Assembly (NCBI GenBank): GCA_013214985.1
Contig: JABSRY010000001.1
Span: 1 to 26,352, forward strand
Source of the DNA: Hyphomicrobiales bacterium
GTDB taxonomy: Bacteria > Pseudomonadota > Alphaproteobacteria > Rhizobiales > OSC116
Direction of reading: 5' to 3'
DNA: 26,352 nt
In this document: positions 12,624-21,677 of the stretch, piece by piece
How the letters are laid out: every line of letters begins with the position of its first letter
Position numbering within the stretch: position 1 is the first letter of the stretch
Made by a program: the position numbers and the translations under genes
Notes under the pieces: generated by a model
Database searches by the model: none
What the model was told of the DNA's origin: nothing
What the model saw: the letters and a program-made list of their open reading frames with translations, nothing else

Positions 12624-12841
12624 TTTTTATCCCTTTTTAAAAAGGTTGTAAAAGCCTCTGAACAATCATTTAAATGCTCAAAGACGACAAATATTACTTC
12701 AATCAAGATGTTTAAAAAAATACATAAAATATATATTATTTGAACAACTAGATAACCCATCAAAGCACCTAGCAAAAAAACAGGCATCAATACCAGCCAA
12801 AACAAACCTTGTATCAGACCACCAAATATGATTTTAAGCAT
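12620..12841 (-). CDS. Hypothetical hydrophobic protein
   Basis: 73-aa ORF translationally coupled to neighbours (TGATG and GTGA overlaps); mostly hydrophobic. Confidence 0.55.
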   Translation of the reverse strand: MLKIIFGGLIQGLFWLVLMPVFLLGALMGYLVVQIIYILCIFLNILIEVIFVVFEHLNDCSEAFTTFLKRDKK

Positions 12842-13002
12842 CACTGCACCTCCTCACCACATTTAGAACAAGCGCCATTAACATCATCTTTTATTTCGCC
12901 ACATGAGTTACAAGAATATTCACACATACAGTCATCACAAAGTTGATCAACGCCGTCATATTCCTCGCAGCATCCATCACAGATAAAAACATCATCATCC
13001 AT
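12841..13002 (-). CDS. Small acidic Cys-rich protein, 53 aa, four CxxC pairs (not in ORF track)
   Basis: MDDDVFICDGCCEEYDGVDQLCDDCMCEYSCNSCGEIKDDVNGACSKCGEEVQ; AAGGGG SD; TGATG overlaps at both ends. Confidence 0.75.
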   Translation of the reverse strand: MDDDVFICDGCCEEYDGVDQLCDDCMCEYSCNSCGEIKDDVNGACSKCGEEVQ

Positions 13003-13163
13003 CACTTAGCCCCTTTTATCTGATAGTTGGTTTCAAAATAATCAGCCATTTTAGCTTTATGAGCTTCTTCTTGGCCGCTCATTGCCCTCAAAACTGCATC
13101 CCGTCTTATCTTTAAAATATTTAAAGTTTCGGCTCGCATCTTTTTTTGGAGTTGACTATCCAT
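13002..13163 (-). CDS. Hypothetical protein, 53 aa (not in ORF track)
   Basis: MDSQLQKKMRAETLNILKIRRDAVLRAMSGQEEAHKAKMADYFETNYQIKGAK; TGATG overlaps with gam and the next ORF; GAGG upstream. Confidence 0.7.
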   Translation of the reverse strand: MDSQLQKKMRAETLNILKIRRDAVLRAMSGQEEAHKAKMADYFETNYQIKGAK

Positions 13164-13693
13164 CACGCCACCTCGCTTAATTTTTCGTCATGAGGCTCAA
13201 TAGAAAAATTTTCACCTTCCGAACCGATGGTAATGCCTTTAATTTCAGCAACTGCATCCGCATCGGCAGCTATGGCATCTTTATCAATTGATAATTTTGT
13301 ACGGATAAACCGCTCTAAGTGGGCTTTTTTCAAAGCTTCAATAATAGCATCCACACCTTTAGTGTTCACCTTAGCTGGCAATGTGCGCCAATTAACATCA
13401 CCACTAGGGAATTGGTGAAACTTAACCTTGCCGTTACGGGTTAATTCATTACGGTTTGCTTCACAATAAGCTTGCACACCCCGCGTTAATTCAACAATTT
13501 TATTACGGACTGGGTCAGCTTGTTCCTCGTGTATTTTCTTGATACCAGCCATACCCTCAGCCATAGCCGCCTCAATTAAAATCAATTCACGGTTTAAATT
13601 ACCAAGCTTGGCAATAGCTTCGCTTGCTTCGTCACGATTTTGCGGCACACTAACAATCGCAGCATTCTTTAATATTTTCTTTGTCATTTTCAT
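13163..13693 (-). CDS. gam: Host-nuclease inhibitor Gam (Mu Gam family)
   Basis: 'VPQ.RDEA...I..LG', 'GVQAYCEANR.ELT..GK.K', 'G.V.WR..P', 'RFIRTK..IDKDAI', 'GI.I....E.F.IEP'. Confidence 0.93.
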   Translation of the reverse strand: MKMTKKILKNAAIVSVPQNRDEASEAIAKLGNLNRELILIEAAMAEGMAGIKKIHEEQADPVRNKIVELTRGVQAYCEANRNELTRNGKVKFHQFPSGDVNWRTLPAKVNTKGVDAIIEALKKAHLERFIRTKLSIDKDAIAADADAVAEIKGITIGSEGENFSIEPHDEKLSEVA

Positions 13694-13721
13694 AATCTTT
13701 CTTATGTGGTTTTATTCAAAA

Positions 13722-13955
13722 CTAATTTGTTAAATTCCCGTTACCAACTTGCTTAATGGTCTCTGTGAAATTGGCGGGTAATCGGTATATTCTTAAAAGT
13801 GAATTGTAAGCAGCCCTTAATGAGCCTATTTTAAAATCCATTTGAGCGGCGCTTAAAGTGCCTCTACTAACCTGTTTTTGACAATCAGCCTCAACAGTTT
13901 TAAGCGCCTCACTAATTCCCTCAATTTGGTGTTTAATTGAATATTCAACATTCAT
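13722..13955 (-). CDS. Hypothetical protein
   Basis: 77-aa ORF with ATGA overlap in the early operon. Confidence 0.6.
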   Translation of the reverse strand: MNVEYSIKHQIEGISEALKTVEADCQKQVSRGTLSAAQMDFKIGSLRAAYNSLLRIYRLPANFTETIKQVGNGNLTN

Positions 13956-14251
13956 GACACCAACCCTTCAATTTTGACCACAAGCCTATTGACTTTGTCA
14001 GCAAAATCACCGTTCCAATCAATTTTGGTTTGGACTTTCCGTTGAGCATCTGACACAAAATGTTTACTTCTTTTAATTAACAAGCCAATTTCAAAGCGGT
14101 TTTGAGATGTCATTTTCTTGGCTAAGTAAGCATAGGTAAATCTTGAAAATGAAAATTTACGTTGTGTTTTCACCATTTTTAAAAAACTAATGCCATAATC
14201 AGCCGCAACAACATCCGCAATTAATTTTAATTTTGGTTCAATATTTCTCAT
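13952..14251 (-). CDS. DnaA domain IV-like (DnaA C-terminal HTH) protein
   Basis: 'I...VA..YGIS...M...R....SR....YLAK.MT.....EIG....R....V..A..KV.......DF..KV..L' follows the DnaA domain IV pattern. Confidence 0.7.
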   Translation of the reverse strand: MRNIEPKLKLIADVVAADYGISFLKMVKTQRKFSFSRFTYAYLAKKMTSQNRFEIGLLIKRSKHFVSDAQRKVQTKIDWNGDFADKVNRLVVKIEGLVS

Positions 14252-14550
14252 GCTGCATCACCCCCATCATTAAAACCAACAGAAATAATCTTGCCGCCTT
14301 TGTTTTCTTTTTTTGATCTAAAAGCTAGTATTGTTGCCGATGACATAATCGGCTCATTATTTACTTCATGCTCAACAACCTTGTCAGACAATTCTAAAAA
14401 CAAATCTGCAATATCCTGACAATCCATCCAATTCAACAAAACACCGTGTTCACTGGCTAATCTAAATCTGCAGGACAAAAGCGTTAAACTTGCATGAAGA
14501 TCTTCGTTTTCTAAACTCTCCAAATATTCTTTATCTAAAATCTTTTTCAT
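14248..14550 (-). CDS. Hypothetical protein
   Basis: 100-aa ORF with GAGGA SD; coupled to the next gene. Confidence 0.65.
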   Translation of the reverse strand: MKKILDKEYLESLENEDLHASLTLLSCRFRLASEHGVLLNWMDCQDIADLFLELSDKVVEHEVNNEPIMSSATILAFRSKKENKGGKIISVGFNDGGDAA

Positions 14551-15646: not shown

Positions 15647-16378
15647 TCAAGCTTTCCCCCCATTTGGCGCATAGCTATTGTTAAACCCGCCCTTCGCTTT
15701 AAATATAGCAAGGTCGATTTCCTTTAAATCTAGCCCTGTGCAAACATCACAAGCGGCATATATGTCCGCCATAACGTAACGAATAATACCTTTATTATGA
15801 CTGTTTAATTTTTCAATTAAATCCTTGGAAAAAGTTAATTCAGGCGCAAACTTCTCAACCAAAAGTTTTATATCTTCATTGCTAGCACGCTCGGCAACTT
15901 GCCATTTTAACACCCGATTATGCACCCGCTCTAATGAACGTATGTTCGATGGTAATTGACCTTCACCCAATAATATTATGGGGCAATTAGTCGCGTCACT
16001 AATCTCACGAATAAGCTCAATCTTTGGCACTTTCGCGCCATCGATTAAATAATCCGCTTCATCAATAATAATAGGGCGAATTTTCTGCTTTAATTCAAAT
16101 ATAATTCGAGCAACGCCATCAGGCACTGATCGAATGGAACTAATATGAAATTCTTTTGCCAAATTCTCAATCAATGTGCGCTTTGTCCAACTGCCACCAA
16201 CCGCTATATATTTAGCCTGATGTGCACTCATCGCCCAAATAGCCGAAGTGGTTTTACCAACACCAGACGCACCATAAAAACACGCAATAGAAGGTAAGCT
16301 ATCATCCGCATTCATCATATGCGTCATTAGATTGTTGAAGTTTTGAACATTGGTAATATGTGCGAAATTACTAGACAT
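15647..16378 (-). CDS. MuB-like DNA transposition ATPase (AAA+)
   Basis: Walker A GASGVGKT, Walker B IIIDEAD, 'PIILLGE', arginine finger region 'ERVHNRV'. Confidence 0.93.
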   Translation of the reverse strand: MSSNFAHITNVQNFNNLMTHMMNADDSLPSIACFYGASGVGKTTSAIWAMSAHQAKYIAVGGSWTKRTLIENLAKEFHISSIRSVPDGVARIIFELKQKIRPIIIDEADYLIDGAKVPKIELIREISDATNCPIILLGEGQLPSNIRSLERVHNRVLKWQVAERASNEDIKLLVEKFAPELTFSKDLIEKLNSHNKGIIRYVMADIYAACDVCTGLDLKEIDLAIFKAKGGFNNSYAPNGGKA

Positions 16379-16907
16379 TTTTACCTCCCAATTCTTTATT
16401 CAAAACATGAGCAGAACCCTTGCTTTTAAACCAATCGGCACAATATTTATTGAGCTCAACTTCACTAACACTCAGCTTTAAATAATCCGCATGAAATTTA
16501 CCGTTTAAGTCCCTCATAAATGAGCGGTATAAATCGCACATAATACGCTCGACTTTGCCAGTAAGATTATGGCGGTAGTAATTGTGATGGGATGACTCAA
16601 TGCCAAGTGTTGCAAGATGATTTCGAAACATCTTCGTTCCAAACTGAAGGCCGCTATCCATCATTATTTCATCAGGAAAATAACCCCAACAATTAATGCC
16701 TTCACCGATCATTCCTAAACCTGCGACATCAATTTCAACATCAAGGCGACTGAATAAAGGTAATGCCTCGTTATCATCTTCATTAAAAATTACAAACAAA
16801 CGTAACCTTCTATCCTTAGTGGCAATTAACACCCCACTACAGTCTAATTGCCATCGCCGCTTGACATTTGTGTCGCGCTCTGGCATTTTTTCATTATTTT
16901 TAGTCAT
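16371..16907 (-). CDS. Stand-alone DDE (integrase-core) domain protein, paralog of the adjacent transposase core
   Basis: WQLD...WGYFPDEIMMDSGLQF...GKVER: D(61)D(35)E; no DNA-binding domains; GAGG SD 6 nt before MTKNN; overlaps the B start. Confidence 0.8.
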   Translation of the reverse strand: MTKNNEKMPERDTNVKRRWQLDCSGVLIATKDRRLRLFVIFNEDDNEALPLFSRLDVEIDVAGLGMIGEGINCWGYFPDEIMMDSGLQFGTKMFRNHLATLGIESSHHNYYRHNLTGKVERIMCDLYRSFMRDLNGKFHADYLKLSVSEVELNKYCADWFKSKGSAHVLNKELGGKNV

Positions 16908-16941
16908 ATTGAACCTCAATCTTGACCTAATTAAAATTACC

Positions 16942-16971
16942 GATCATTGGATGCTTGAACATTCAATGATC
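16942..16971 (+). terminator. Stem-loop between A and the DDE-core gene; T-rich tail on the + (antisense) strand
   Basis: GATCATTGGATG-CTTGAA-CATTCAATGATC (12 bp with one G-U on + strand) followed by ACTTATTTTTT. Confidence 0.4.
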
Positions 16972-17003
16972 ACTTATTTTTACGCAGTACAAATTCTCTT
17001 AAG

Positions 17004-19193
17004 CTAGCTGTCATTAGCCGCTTTAATCGCTTCTTCCATTATCTTCTCAGATATATAATTGGCATTTTTCACATAGCCGTCAGCCCAGCGCTTATCTGCA
17101 GATAAAACATCATTACCAGCCTTAATATTGGCTAATATTTTATTGCATTTTATATAGGCATTAGCTCGCTGGATATGCTCAGGCTCAACTACCACCACTT
17201 TAGGATGCTGCACAATCTCAACTTCAACTTTATGCTTCTCAACCGTTTTATAACCGCCCAAAGCATCACCCGCCGCATCCAGCGCATCCGTGGTATAATC
17301 AACCTCGCGTTTAGGCAGCCTTGTAACATTATTAGCCTCTTTTACGGCTTCCGCCATAATACCCTCAACCAAATCACTAGGTTTGGCTTTGCGCGCTTGC
17401 GATTTAATATCTGCTAATGCCCTTCTATGCTGCTCTTTTTGGTCTTTTTGCTTGGCTTTAATCATTGCCCGTGGGTTTACTTTGCTAAGTGCAGGACACT
17501 CAGCCATGCTAATAAAACGCTTTTTATCTTCATCAAATAAATAAATAATGCCCAAATCATCAGGCGAATGCACCACATAAACCCTTGAATGAACTTCAAC
17601 CTCTGATGACCAGTAAAATTCTTTATCAATTCGGACACCGTGCTTAGTAAATGTCCGCACACCAGCAGTTGGTGCAAATAACAAATCAAGCGCGGCAATA
17701 TCTTTTATTTTTTTCAATTCTTTTGTGCAAGTATCTTGCTTCCCAAAAGGTGACATACCATTCATGCCAATGCCGCCATGCTCCCTACGGCCATACTTAA
17801 ATTCTGCCCATTGAGTACAATATTCTTGTAGCTTCTCAGGGGTGGTTTCTATGCAAAATAACTTCTCATTTTTTGTGCCCAATCTATTGGCAAAACTCTT
17901 TCTGGCTTCAATCTTTTTTCGGTCAGCAACACTATGCCCAATAAATCCTGGTATCATGCTCATAAGTTCATGGTTTATGGTTTTAATAACCCGCTCAACT
18001 GTACCCTTTTGCTCTGGGCTATAAGCGGTACATCGATGATGCACAATATTCAAATCTTTTAATGCGGTTATATAACGTAACGACACAAAATCACTACCAT
18101 TGTCGGTGGATATTTCTTCTGGAATACCCCATAATAATATTGCCATACGCGTAAGCGCTAATACCGCCTCAGTTTTCGGTGTTTTACTAATATAAATAAT
18201 CAAACGGCGGCTAAATACGTCAATCAATGCATATAATGTATAGCGCCCGTCTGTGGTTAATATATCAGTTGGCGAGGCATCAACTTCCCATTTTTGATTA
18301 AATCGCACCACATGAGCATTCATATTATTGCCAACAAGTTTTATATGATTTTTATAACCATCTGGGTCTAGCTCCATCATAAACGCATTTTCATATTCAG
18401 CCATAAAGCCGTTAAAAAACCGCGTTAAAGTGCGCTTATGTGGCATCTTGACCATCTTGCCGTTAAACTCAATTTCTGATCCGAATTGTAGGGTGATAGC
18501 CTCAAGCATTTGTTGCATACTAATTTGTGGCTTATTTAAATAATGAGCGCCGATTTGTATCTTAATTTTACCGCCTAATGCATTCTCAAAAAAGCCAGTA
18601 CCTTTACGTCCACCGCCTCGGCTGGCAAGGTTGCCAATTTTGTAAGAATTACGGTCTTTTAACCACCTATTTAAACTCGGTTTAGAGATGGATTTAATAC
18701 AGGCATGTTGAATACATTCAAAATTAGATTGCCCGCTATTATACATAAATATAAACGCTTTATCAGCGCGAGATTTTAAGCCTTTATGTTGGTTTCTGAA
18801 AATCTCCCAACAGCGTAAAATATCTAATTTTGCATCACGTTCTATAACTTCCTTGCTGTCCAAAATTCGGCTATTATCAATGTAAATAATTTCCTTTTCA
18901 GCCGCTTTTTTTGCGGTAGTTTCTTGTAGATATTCTGAGTTTTCATTAAGTACATTTTTAAATTGACGCACAATAAAATCATTCTGTGCAACTTCGGGAA
19001 AAACCGAAGGATTATATTCCCATCCACCACCCTTGCCAGAGCGTGGGCGAGCTAAATCTTCACCCTTGGATTGCCAGTTTTCGCGCTTGGCAAATTTATT
19101 TAAATGGCTCTTATCATTTGGCAAGCCTCTCAATTCCATATCAGCAATTTCTTGAGGTGTATAAAACACATTTTTAGGGATTAAATTGCTCAT
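17004..19193 (-). CDS. MuA-like DDE transposase
   Basis: N-terminal Mu-type wHTH ('EIA.....GLP......K.A.RE.W......RSGKGGGWEY'), triad WEVD / STDNG / KGTVER = D(58)D(35)E, C-terminal Mu-transposase barrel region. Confidence 0.96.
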   Translation of the reverse strand: MSNLIPKNVFYTPQEIADMELRGLPNDKSHLNKFAKRENWQSKGEDLARPRSGKGGGWEYNPSVFPEVAQNDFIVRQFKNVLNENSEYLQETTAKKAAEKEIIYIDNSRILDSKEVIERDAKLDILRCWEIFRNQHKGLKSRADKAFIFMYNSGQSNFECIQHACIKSISKPSLNRWLKDRNSYKIGNLASRGGGRKGTGFFENALGGKIKIQIGAHYLNKPQISMQQMLEAITLQFGSEIEFNGKMVKMPHKRTLTRFFNGFMAEYENAFMMELDPDGYKNHIKLVGNNMNAHVVRFNQKWEVDASPTDILTTDGRYTLYALIDVFSRRLIIYISKTPKTEAVLALTRMAILLWGIPEEISTDNGSDFVSLRYITALKDLNIVHHRCTAYSPEQKGTVERVIKTINHELMSMIPGFIGHSVADRKKIEARKSFANRLGTKNEKLFCIETTPEKLQEYCTQWAEFKYGRREHGGIGMNGMSPFGKQDTCTKELKKIKDIAALDLLFAPTAGVRTFTKHGVRIDKEFYWSSEVEVHSRVYVVHSPDDLGIIYLFDEDKKRFISMAECPALSKVNPRAMIKAKQKDQKEQHRRALADIKSQARKAKPSDLVEGIMAEAVKEANNVTRLPKREVDYTTDALDAAGDALGGYKTVEKHKVEVEIVQHPKVVVVEPEHIQRANAYIKCNKILANIKAGNDVLSADKRWADGYVKNANYISEKIMEEAIKAANDS

Positions 19194-20230: not shown

Positions 20231-20430
20231 GCCACTTCTCCTAATGCTGACACCGTCACTATTTTAACAGCTTCAAGTCCGTTCCGTTTAACCGATACCT
20301 CAGCACTTATACGGCTGTTATAAAGTCTTGCCATCGCCAAATAATTTGTAAATGTTACTTTACCTCCACCAAAAGCCGCTGACGCAAACAACAAACCATT
20401 ACTATTTTTAATGCAATAACAATTGTTCAT
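20227..20430 (-). CDS. Hypothetical protein
   Basis: 67-aa ORF coupled by ATGA overlaps to ner and the next gene; GGAG SD. Confidence 0.65.
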   Translation of the reverse strand: MNNCYCIKNSNGLLFASAAFGGGKVTFTNYLAMARLYNSRISAEVSVKRNGLEAVKIVTVSALGEVA

Positions 20431-20720
20431 GCCGCTTCTCCTATTTTACTAGACCCAAGCATAATATTTCTGTTAGGGTAGTTTTGTTGAACACGGCGCA
20501 TGCCATTAGGATGATAGCGATCAGGCCAAATCTCACACAAAGGTATTTTAAGCCAACTGGCTAATGCCTTGTCTGCTTTAGGGAATGGTCTATCAAAAGA
20601 GACAGAAATGTCATAAAGATTTAATCCTAATTCTTTTTCAAGCGCGATGGCGGTATAGCCTTGCTCTTTGATTTCCGCCAATATTCTATGGCGTGACCAT
20701 GTTCGATTTATAACAGGCAT
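20427..20720 (-). CDS. ner: Ner-like DNA-binding protein (Ner/SfsB family)
   Basis: 'W.RH.I.A.IK..G', 'RP.PKA...LA..L......IWP.RY'; divergent from the repressor. Confidence 0.92.
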   Translation of the reverse strand: MPVINRTWSRHRILAEIKEQGYTAIALEKELGLNLYDISVSFDRPFPKADKALASWLKIPLCEIWPDRYHPNGMRRVQQNYPNRNIMLGSSKIGEAA

Positions 20721-20796
20721 ATTAGCTCCAATTTACAACAGTGTTTCGATCACTGTTTTTTGTTAATCTGTCTATTCGGTAAACTGAATAAAACAT

Positions 20797-20855
20797 AATT
20801 AGGGGTTTTTGTAAATACCTAATTAGGTTTTTGTGTATAATTAAGGGTTTTATGT
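20797..20855. promoter_or_regulatory. Immunity operator region: three AATTA-purine-TTTT-TGT repeats, 12-bp palindrome and TATAAT
   Basis: AATTAGGGGTTTTTGT (20797), AATTAGGTTTTTGT (20821), AATTAAGGGTTTTATGT (20839); ACCTAATTAGGT 20817-20828; TATAAT 20836-20841. Confidence 0.55.
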
Positions 20856-21286
20856 CTTATTCGGAGTTTAAAGACCGCTTGAAAATGGTGGTTAAAAAAA
20901 ATGGCGGAAATAAATATATAGCCACCAAGGCGGGTATGCCATTAGGAACGCTAAGTAAATATGTTACGGGAATATCAGAACCTACACTTTCGAACCTCCG
21001 CTTATTAGCTGATACATGCGAGGTCTCTATTGATTGGCTTGTTTATGGAGGTGATATGAATGAAGCGACACGACCAATCGTTAACCAAACACCCTTAGAT
21101 AAAAAAACTTTAGCTGATGCAATCGAAGTGCTAGAAACAGCATTAAATGAAAATGGTAGTACATTACCACCTAAACCAAAAGCAGAAGCCTTGATGTTAG
21201 CTTATGAAATATTATTAGAAGATGAAGATGGTAGCGACAGTAATAAAAGTACTGACTTTAAGAGCTTTTTAAAATTAGTCAGCTAA
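20852..21286 (+). CDS. Prophage repressor (XRE HTH, no S24 peptidase domain)
   Basis: 'IATKAGMPLGTLSKYVTG.SEP.L..L..LA....VS.DWL..G'; divergent from ner at the left end. Confidence 0.88.
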   Translation: MSYSEFKDRLKMVVKKNGGNKYIATKAGMPLGTLSKYVTGISEPTLSNLRLLADTCEVSIDWLVYGGDMNEATRPIVNQTPLDKKTLADAIEVLETALNENGSTLPPKPKAEALMLAYEILLEDEDGSDSNKSTDFKSFLKLVS

Positions 21287-21323
21287 TTTTTCTATGTATT
21301 TAATTTTAAAAGGAGATATTTCA

Positions 21324-21677
21324 TTGGATGAAAAGCAGAGCAAACTTAAAAATATTTTAAATAAAAATGAGGATTTTGAAGAAAAAGACACTAAGAACAC
21401 CAATGCATTGGTTCAAAATTTCACAAACAATAAAAACGTAACAGTAGTTGATAGCATTATTGTTAATACATTTAATCATGCAAGCGAGAAAGACAAAACT
21501 AGAAAGCCTTTACGCGAAAACAAGCTAATATTTTTAATAGAAAATGAACTTAAAAACATCAACAATACTATTGAAAAACTAACCCTCTGGGTGTTAGGTG
21601 TTGAGCTTAGTGTTTTAGATGGACTAACTGATACAGAATTACAAAAATTACACGATTTCTTAAAACACAATAGGTAA
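21324..21677 (+). CDS. AT-rich hypothetical protein co-oriented with the repressor
   Basis: GGAG 8 nt before an in-frame TTG; Asn/Lys-rich N-half, helical C-terminus. Confidence 0.65.
   Translation: MDEKQSKLKNILNKNEDFEEKDTKNTNALVQNFTNNKNVTVVDSIIVNTFNHASEKDKTRKPLRENKLIFLIENELKNINNTIEKLTLWVLGVELSVLDGLTDTELQKLHDFLKHNR

Follow-up and report, generated by a model that had tools for sequence, protein, structure and literature searches.

A selected, optional gene for a stand-alone DDE catalytic core, derived from a Mu-type transposase, is coupled to gene B of a Mu-like prophage

What is the bare catalytic core of a transposase doing between the A and B genes of a Mu-like prophage? The locus lies in a window that is a whole contig of 26.4 kb, from a metagenome-assembled genome (MAG) of 3.43 Mb that is 75 % complete; identical DNA was found in two marine-sediment metagenomes. 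A Mu-like prophage occupies positions 1 to about 21.7 kb and is transcribed from the minus strand. Its genes encode, among others, a Ner-like HTH_35 protein, an HTH_3 repressor, a MuA-type transposase, a MuB-type AAA+ protein, Gam and GemA. The original prediction, made from the letters of the sequence, had described a 178-aa open reading frame with its own GAGG Shine-Dalgarno sequence between MuA and MuB and coupled to B, and both the frame and the coupling were confirmed (Table 1). We refer to this gene as the mini-core.

The TAG stop codon of the mini-core (16371-16373) is situated within the start region of MuB, 2 nt past the ATG of B at 16378, which gives an overlap of 8 nt. The mini-core codons for GGK serve also as the GGAGG ribosome-binding site of B. 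The gene is placed such that ribosomes terminating on the mini-core begin B. Read-through from A, or a fusion with it, was considered and rejected. The frames of the two genes coincide in the window but extra in-frame stops lie between them, and in the related prophage G006 described below the frames differ. Metatranscriptome contigs from the source sample overlapped MuA, MuB and other early genes and not the mini-core ORF, but these contigs were sparse and may derive from DNA carry-over.

Table 1. Positions of the mini-core gene, its neighbours and its sequence elements in the window.
Feature	Position	Strand	Basis
Mini-core gene, stand-alone retroviral-integrase-type DDE catalytic core, 178 aa (P0001)	16371..16907	-	Homology, fold, ortholog P0004
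MuA-type transposase, 729 aa (P0002), triad D305, D364, E400	17004..19193	-	Pfam rve 4e-15, Mu-transpos_C 6e-9, phrog_310 3e-87
MuB-type AAA+ transposition ATPase, 243 aa (P0003)	15647..16378	-	phrog_296 7e-41, AAA_22 1e-9
GAGG Shine-Dalgarno sequence, 6 nt 5' of the mini-core ATG (16907)	16914..16917	-	Read from the sequence; kept in L011 and L015
D22 codon, first Asp of the triad, strand beta-1, motif WQLD	16842..16844	-	Invariant in both mini-cores and all aligned MuA cores
D84 codon, second Asp of the triad, after beta-4	16656..16658	-	Invariant in the alignment; adjoining TDNGSDF of MuA not retained
E120 codon, Glu of the triad, motif G-K/R-V-E-R-I	16548..16550	-	Both mini-cores; 36 residues past D84
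First 19 codons, conserved at the nucleotide level, common to the short leader ORF of relatives without a mini-core	16851..16907	-	pS 0.10, pN 0.11 against pS 0.71 in the core; homologous uORF N-termini
Overlap of mini-core stop and MuB start (ATGTCTAG), translational coupling	16371..16378	-	Same layout in L011 and in uORF loci L013 and L015
Conserved hairpin just past the MuA stop, upstream of the mini-core or uORF	16942..16971	-	13 pairs, 6 with compensatory changes, 6 loci

As shown by BLASTP, the mini-core protein was similar to the MuA of its own prophage (E 5e-8, 25 % identity over 120 aa), which was its sole other match in its own genome. Matches to the MuAs of related prophages reached E ~1e-11 and aligned residues 17-174 with residues 301-477. 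A profile of two mini-cores, the second being the ortholog P0004 introduced below, was compared with a profile of eight MuA cores using hhalign and matched with 98.5 % probability (E 2.3e-15, 144 columns). General family models detected the protein poorly. Pfam rve (PF00665) gave 16 bits for P0001, below the gathering threshold of 32.6, and P0004 had no match at all in Pfam. Phrog_310 matched at 7e-5 over profile positions 332-439 of 696 only, and the best NCBIfam match was IS481 (E 3e-6, 27 bits), restricted to the 59 residues 77-135. The homology call rests on the pairwise and profile comparisons, by which the core is closer in sequence to Mu-type cores than to other DDE families.

The five pairs of motifs that had been matched by eye with the neighbouring transposase all line up in the alignment. 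The three acidic residues and their exact D(35)E spacing were likewise upheld: D22, D84 and E120 correspond to D305, D364 and E400 of MuA, and the distance from D to E is 36 in both proteins. The E. coli Mu transposase has D336 and E392 (PMC3362531), which places the transposase of this phage among the 35-spacing kind. The absence of the DNA-binding domains, of the insertion after the Glu helix and of the C-terminal domain, as predicted, was evident from Pfam, the alignment and the profile comparison. The mini-core protein begins 18 residues before beta-1 and has no HTH_Tnp_Mu match; it stops about 15 residues past the last core helix and carries neither Mu-transpos_C nor domain III. The single gap of the mini-core against the MuA profile comprises 23-28 residues exactly after the Glu helix, where MuA has a conserved basic segment, 'GHxVxDRKxIEARKxF'.

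Outside the triad the sequence has drifted far. Among 70 aligned columns that are near-invariant in the eight MuA cores, only 19 were kept in both mini-cores and 73 % were lost. D22, D84 and E120 are all within the 19 retained columns (hypergeometric P ~0.018 if retention was random among those columns). The W-x-L-D-x-S and G-x-V-E-R-I contexts were also retained in both. The triad-flanking motifs DASP, TDNGSDF and SPEQKG, which make contacts to DNA or metal in active enzymes, were lost, and the residues found there differ between the two mini-cores. The case for selection on the triad is thin, as it is based on two full sequences. The net charge of the two cores is -4 and -9, so that they are acidic, and there is only a short basic tail, which is conserved at the nucleotide rather than the protein level.

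An RNase H fold with the topology beta1-beta2-beta3-alpha1-beta4-alpha2-beta5-alpha was predicted by structural modelling. AlphaFold2 was run on an alignment of 10 rows, containing the two mini-cores and eight MuA cores, and gave a model with pLDDT 78 and pTM 0.72. Its elements follow the canonical order of three strands, a helix, a strand, helices, a strand, the long Glu helix and a final helix. The top Foldseek matches of this model were integrase catalytic cores, IstA and TnsB, at a probability of 1.00. As the MuA-containing alignment could bias the model, AlphaFold2 was also run with only the two orthologs as alignment, and the pLDDT was then 49.5. The ESM Atlas holds an alignment-free model of the exact mini-core sequence (pTM 0.68), which superimposes on rve transposases with TM 0.65-0.70 over about 150 residues. 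The AlphaFold2, Foldseek and ESM Atlas results together indicate that the mini-core is a complete minimal integrase-type core. A complex of MuA residues 250-729, MuB and the mini-core was predicted from shallow alignments with a score of 0.00, which speaks neither for nor against binding.

Is this gene a decaying duplicate or a gene under selection? One homolog of the mini-core was found among about 15 billion proteins. This protein, P0004, has 173 aa and 35 % identity (E 2e-21), and it was the sole other match when 1.84 billion cluster representatives were scanned exhaustively with HMMER; the clusters of P0001 and P0004 are both singletons. Its host is a MAG of the same genus (G006, contig JADGDI010000105.1). 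P0004 is flanked by a MuA of 736 aa and a MuB, and its stop is coupled to the B start in the same way. Its frame is intact and the triad is kept, instead of the frameshifts and random loss of the triad that a decaying duplication would display. In the region shared by the two mini-core prophages the protein identity is 45 % for A, 52 % for B and 26-65 % for other genes, and synonymous sites are saturated. Over codons 20-170 the mini-cores have 40 identities in 145 positions, with pS 0.71 and pN 0.49. The dN/dS of the core is at most about 0.36, as expected of a gene under constraint; the saturated synonymous sites and this ratio indicate a selected gene and not a decaying duplicate.

The ends of the gene behave differently from its core. 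The first 19 codons and the last 8 codons (pS 0.21) are conserved at the nucleotide level. Since this conservation is at the nucleotide level and these stretches are common to the leader ORF of relatives, the ends 'MTKxNEKMPE..NVKRRW' and 'GGKNV' are regarded as cis-elements rather than protein features. A third, partial variant was recovered from a plastisphere metagenome as a 970-nt contig over 16440-17410, with 76 differences and about 92 % nucleotide identity. These two full sequences and the one partial variant make up the known mini-cores, and all come from uncultured marine bacteria that belong to a single genus.

The mini-core was present in 2 of the 6 Mu-like A-B loci of the genus. 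The four loci from which it is absent are G002 C33 and C3 and G007 C2 and C109, two of which are degenerate. The word-indexed search of 5.8 billion clusters returned only the mini-core itself, tblastn of the phage collection found no relative, and scans of IMG/VR and JGI metagenomes with peptide patterns found no copy. A scan of GTDB genomes gave the G006 contig as the sole find. When the profile of the mini-core pair was run against 400 genomes of the class, it matched long MuA-like frames (516-854 aa) only, with no frames of IS3 or IS481 size and no mini-core. The DNA pattern AATGTCAARCGNCGATGG matched at least 131 loci in metagenome and viral contigs; among the matches listed, all were due to chance, and tblastn found no relative of A, B or the mini-core at them. 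In outgroup loci and in phages RC1 and MuM16-1, A is followed directly by B. The three-component transposition module suggested in the original prediction is not borne out as a general arrangement, as the mini-core occurs in two of six A-B loci of one genus and nowhere else among the collections searched. No characterised family in Pfam, PHROG, NCBIfam, PADLOC or the literature claims the protein. The known anti-phage defence models of PADLOC matched neither P0001 nor P0004, and full-text searches of the literature turned up no core-only gene described between genes A and B in a transposable phage. The split 'integrase/transposase' annotation of Ralstonia phage RS138 was considered as an analogue and rejected, as it looks like a frameshifted A gene.

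The loci without a mini-core showed how the gene is built. All four have an A-B gap of 126-226 nt with a leader ORF of 17-25 codons that is likewise coupled to B. The ends of this leader ORF are homologous to the ends of the mini-core gene, both at the N-terminus (e.g. 'MTEINMKMAEQTANVK') and at the C-terminus, 'LG...V*', which lies over the B start. These homologous ends indicate that the mini-core is an in-frame module of about 153 codons within a conserved, B-coupled leader ORF.

The window A is closest to that of a locus without a mini-core (59 %), and the G006 A likewise (59 %). Informative sites supported the phage tree right up to the junction, by 64 against 15 and 6 in A and by 21 against 4 and 1 in B. 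A recombination tract linking the two mini-core phages was looked for in these flanks and not seen. As the flanks in A and B agree with the phage tree, the mini-core would have been present before the two lineages split and have been lost from their sisters, where it was apparently deleted. The apparent deletion junctions are after K16 in L015 and after R18 in L013 and L014; this difference, which rests on few codons, hints at independent deletions.

The prediction had also regarded the mini-core as a paralog of the neighbouring transposase. A recent duplication of the neighbouring A core was rejected, since no MuA core is nearer to the mini-core than the others are (22-27 % identity) and the mini-core branch is very long. 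The tree groups the two mini-cores together, outside all MuA cores and on long branches of 1.2-1.3 substitutions per site each. The distance between them is about 3.5 times that between the A cores of the same two phages. This faster evolution and the absence from four of the six loci of the genus indicate that the mini-core is dispensable. The gene between A and B is a selected, stand-alone and optional RNase H-fold DDE core gene that is derived from a Mu-type transposase and coupled to B.

For the role of the protein, the original prediction had proposed a dominant-negative or accessory transpososome subunit or a flap nuclease. How such a core might act is suggested by what it kept and what it lost. 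It would have originated from a Mu-type transposase core by removal of every DNA-binding domain, domains II-beta and III and the basic segment after the Glu helix, with beta1-3, alpha1, beta4, alpha2, beta5, alpha4 and alpha5 retained. Sitting in frame inside a leader ORF that in this phage clade couples MuB translation to upstream translation, it is expected to be produced early in the lytic cycle together with B. Without DNA-binding parts it could not find Mu ends alone, and recruitment to the MuA/MuB-DNA complex via protein contacts is therefore probable. The retained metal-binding D,D(35)E site might then act in trans on DNA that MuA has bound, e.g. to process branched or flapped intermediates of transposition. 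Isolated integrase cores act only on pre-formed branched substrates, and in this they resemble the proposed action of the mini-core on DNA already held by MuA. In the A/B transposition module, the mini-core would be an accessory that is optional and that purifying selection has maintained in two lineages. Such an accessory, metal-binding core acting in trans with the MuA/MuB complex is the reading that we favour, if only tentatively.

Nearly as likely as this reading, though doubtful when taken by itself, is a non-catalytic modulator or decoy that adjusts or poisons the assembly of transpososomes by binding to MuA (or MuB). Its targets may be the complexes of its own phage, as a matter of timing, or the complexes of competing Mu-like phages that share the cell, and the triad would be kept only for stability of the fold or metal-dependent folding. 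The acidic cores, the loss of the DNA-binding parts and of the conserved basic segment, and the decay of the motifs next to the active site, which differ between the two orthologs, are all consistent with such a role. Fast evolution and patchy presence are typical of accessories in conflict or regulation, and genomes of the genus often carry two Mu-like prophages (G002, G007). Pseudo-enzymes, however, usually lose their catalytic residues first, whereas the mini-core has kept the triad and the GxVER context despite the loss of 73 % of the MuA-invariant columns. It also lacks the C-terminal parts that are known for MuA protomer and MuB interaction. A third catalytic component, namely a trans-acting DDE nuclease that is built from a transposase core and cuts the strand or flap left uncut by MuA, analogous in function to TnsA of Tn7 but with a different fold, seems improbable; if true, such a nuclease would act as a switch or an accelerator in the decision between non-replicative integration and replicative transposition.

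It is also unlikely, though somewhat less so than the third-component proposal, that the gene is mostly a translated spacer. Its open frame would deliver ribosomes to the MuB start, and the core would be a passenger from an old duplication, heading for deletion and with little or no function as a protein. Relatives cope with the short leader ORF, which has the same two ends and the same B overlap, and the slightly different junctions (K16 in one locus, R18 in two) suggest repeated loss. In addition, conservation is strongest in the nucleotide sequence of the two ends, and of the nine syntenic genes compared only one had a higher dN/dS than the mini-core. Against this stands the core itself, with its pN below a saturated pS. 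After such divergence, a frame that was merely kept open would no longer show the similarity to MuA cores (E 1e-9 to 1e-11) that is seen in both lineages, nor would it have preserved the triad and the residues that define the fold, or fold with confidence. Least credible of all is an ordinary IS fragment of IS481 or IS3 type, inserted between A and B and unrelated to Mu transposition. The IS481 hit in NCBIfam would fit it, as would the distance from the Glu to the final helix, which is like that of IS and retroviral cores without the MuA-specific segment, and the ESM Atlas has many rve-only clusters of 170-200 aa. Yet the match to MuA cores is far stronger and extends over the full length, and the mini-core profile found only MuA-like and no IS-size frames in the 400 genomes. 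No terminal repeats or other IS parts were noted. In both of the diverged phages, the gene keeps exactly to the frame of the conserved leader ORF and its stop is coupled to B, and an intact ortholog of 35 % identity at the same position is contrary to a dead IS.

The favoured reading, a core acting in trans beside MuA and MuB, can be set against known systems. Subdomain II-alpha of MuA (Mu-type, phrog_310) is an RNase H-fold core to which the mini-core is homologous; the DDE residues of the two correspond in position, and both belong to the same module beside MuB. The mini-core differs from MuA as a separate protein of 178 aa that has no domain I, II-beta (Mu-transpos_C) or III. In MuA, domain I binds the ends and the enhancer, and domain III is the part that interacts with MuB and ClpX and holds a cryptic nuclease (PMC3362531). 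Because it has no end-binding domains and neither II-beta nor III, the mini-core does not qualify as a transposase of the MuA family. The retroviral integrase core (e.g. of ASV or HIV-1 IN) is also homologous, at 17-19 % identity. To our knowledge, integrase cores are never made alone in nature and are flanked by zinc-binding and SH3-like domains.

The Inh protein of Tn5 (IS50) is a transposase derivative that is encoded by the element and has no N-terminal DNA-binding part. It provides a model for trans-dominant control by a DNA-blind derivative, as the mini-core might be. Inh has no gene of its own but is translated from that of the transposase; it matches the remainder of Tnp residue for residue and retains the C-terminal region for dimerisation. 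The mini-core, by contrast, is a separate, highly diverged gene without the C-terminal domains. TnsA of Tn7 is encoded by a small extra gene for a putative nuclease beside MuA-like TnsB and MuB-like TnsC, and is thus a model for a second catalytic component by which the outcome of transposition is altered. However, TnsA has a restriction-endonuclease-type fold rather than an RNase H fold, its gene lies upstream of TnsB, and it has no relation to the mini-core in sequence or fold. Short 'integrase core domain-containing' ORFs of IS origin are rve-only and 170-200 aa long, like the mini-core. Such ORFs are recognised by the rve and rve_3 models and generally represent fragments of an IS or pieces of OrfB, while the mini-core falls below the Pfam rve cut-off, is nearest to cores of the Mu type and has a fixed, translationally coupled position in a phage operon.

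The mini-core is a lineage-restricted, optional, core-only paralog of a Mu-type transposase. DDE transposases and integrases are built from modules. A core that lacks domains for DNA binding and oligomerisation is considered useless, and catalysis occurs in trans within a multimer. A selected core-only gene in the A/B operon of a transposable phage would be a natural experiment on what a free core contributes, be it an extra nuclease, a structural filler or an inhibitor. The locus also illustrates a rarely documented route of gene birth, in which a leader ORF for translational coupling carries a catalytic domain in frame; in sister lineages this domain was apparently deleted cleanly. With two full sequences and a partial one from a single genus of uncultured marine bacteria, its general importance is modest for now. 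The spacer between A and the mini-core, which contains the hairpin listed in Table 1, had no match to an Rfam family. On the + strand, this hairpin resembles a terminator.

The junction between the transposase gene A and its ATPase partner gene B is occupied by a conserved cassette common to the Mu-like phages of the host genus, which probably exerts translational or attenuation control of B. It combines a hairpin and a ribosome-binding site with a short leader ORF, and the stop codon of this ORF overlaps the B start. The hairpin lies immediately 3' of the A stop codon and comprises 13 pairs, 6 of which show compensatory changes. In codons 1-19 of the leader ORF synonymous sites were conserved as well (proportion differing, pS, 0.10). 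Rfam held no family for the cassette.

Coordinates of the junction cassette, degenerate relatives and metatranscriptome matches
Feature	Sequence	Positions	Strand
A-B junction cassette	window	16851-17003	minus
A-B junction cassette, mini-core-bearing relative	L011	3336-3420	
A-B junction cassette, mini-less relative	L013	4728-4880	
A-B junction cassette, mini-less relative	L015	3298-3443	
Degenerate prophage locus L014	G002:C3	3151-5931	
Degenerate prophage locus L016	G007:C109	1253-3760	
Metatranscriptome-matched stretches	window	12679-14458; 16086-16236; 17621-17771; 20337-20530	

The prophages at L014 and L016, mini-less loci related to the window's prophage, look degenerate. Both carried a frameshift in the MuA C-terminus. 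L014 MuA had Lys in place of the catalytic Glu, and only a fragment of its B gene remained, with ACG as start; L016 had a stop inside the leader ORF.

The window MuA (17004-19193) has D(35)E spacing, with D364 and E400, like integrases and IS3/IS481 transposases. The corresponding residues of E. coli Mu MuA are D336 and E392 (PMC3362531). When the window MuA was compared with L011, L013 and L015 over alignment columns 100-200, six consecutive sites in this N-terminal domain united the two mini-core-bearing phages against their mini-less sisters. The phage-tree pattern was dominant outside this run, which may have arisen by chance or through a small patch of recombination.

Relatives were also detected in metagenomes. 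In a plastisphere metagenome (run X3), one contig was about 92% identical over window 16440-17410, which takes in the 3' end of A and the greater part of the mini-core gene, and in a second contig divergence began precisely at the A stop (17006). This metagenome thus contains both a third variant of the mini-core and a relative whose organisation differs.

In the metatranscriptome of the source sediment, contigs of 150-220 nt matched the early region with full identity at scattered places, MuA and MuB among them, and none lay within the mini-core; they could reflect low-level transcription or DNA carry-over. In two marine-sediment DNA runs, contigs linked window 20777 directly to 21776 or 21787, bypassing about 1 kb that contains the repressor-side genes (20831-21677), and the Ner region (20425-20841) had 3-5 times the depth of the remainder. 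These junctions and the raised Ner depth together suggest that relatives whose immunity region differs occur alongside this prophage.
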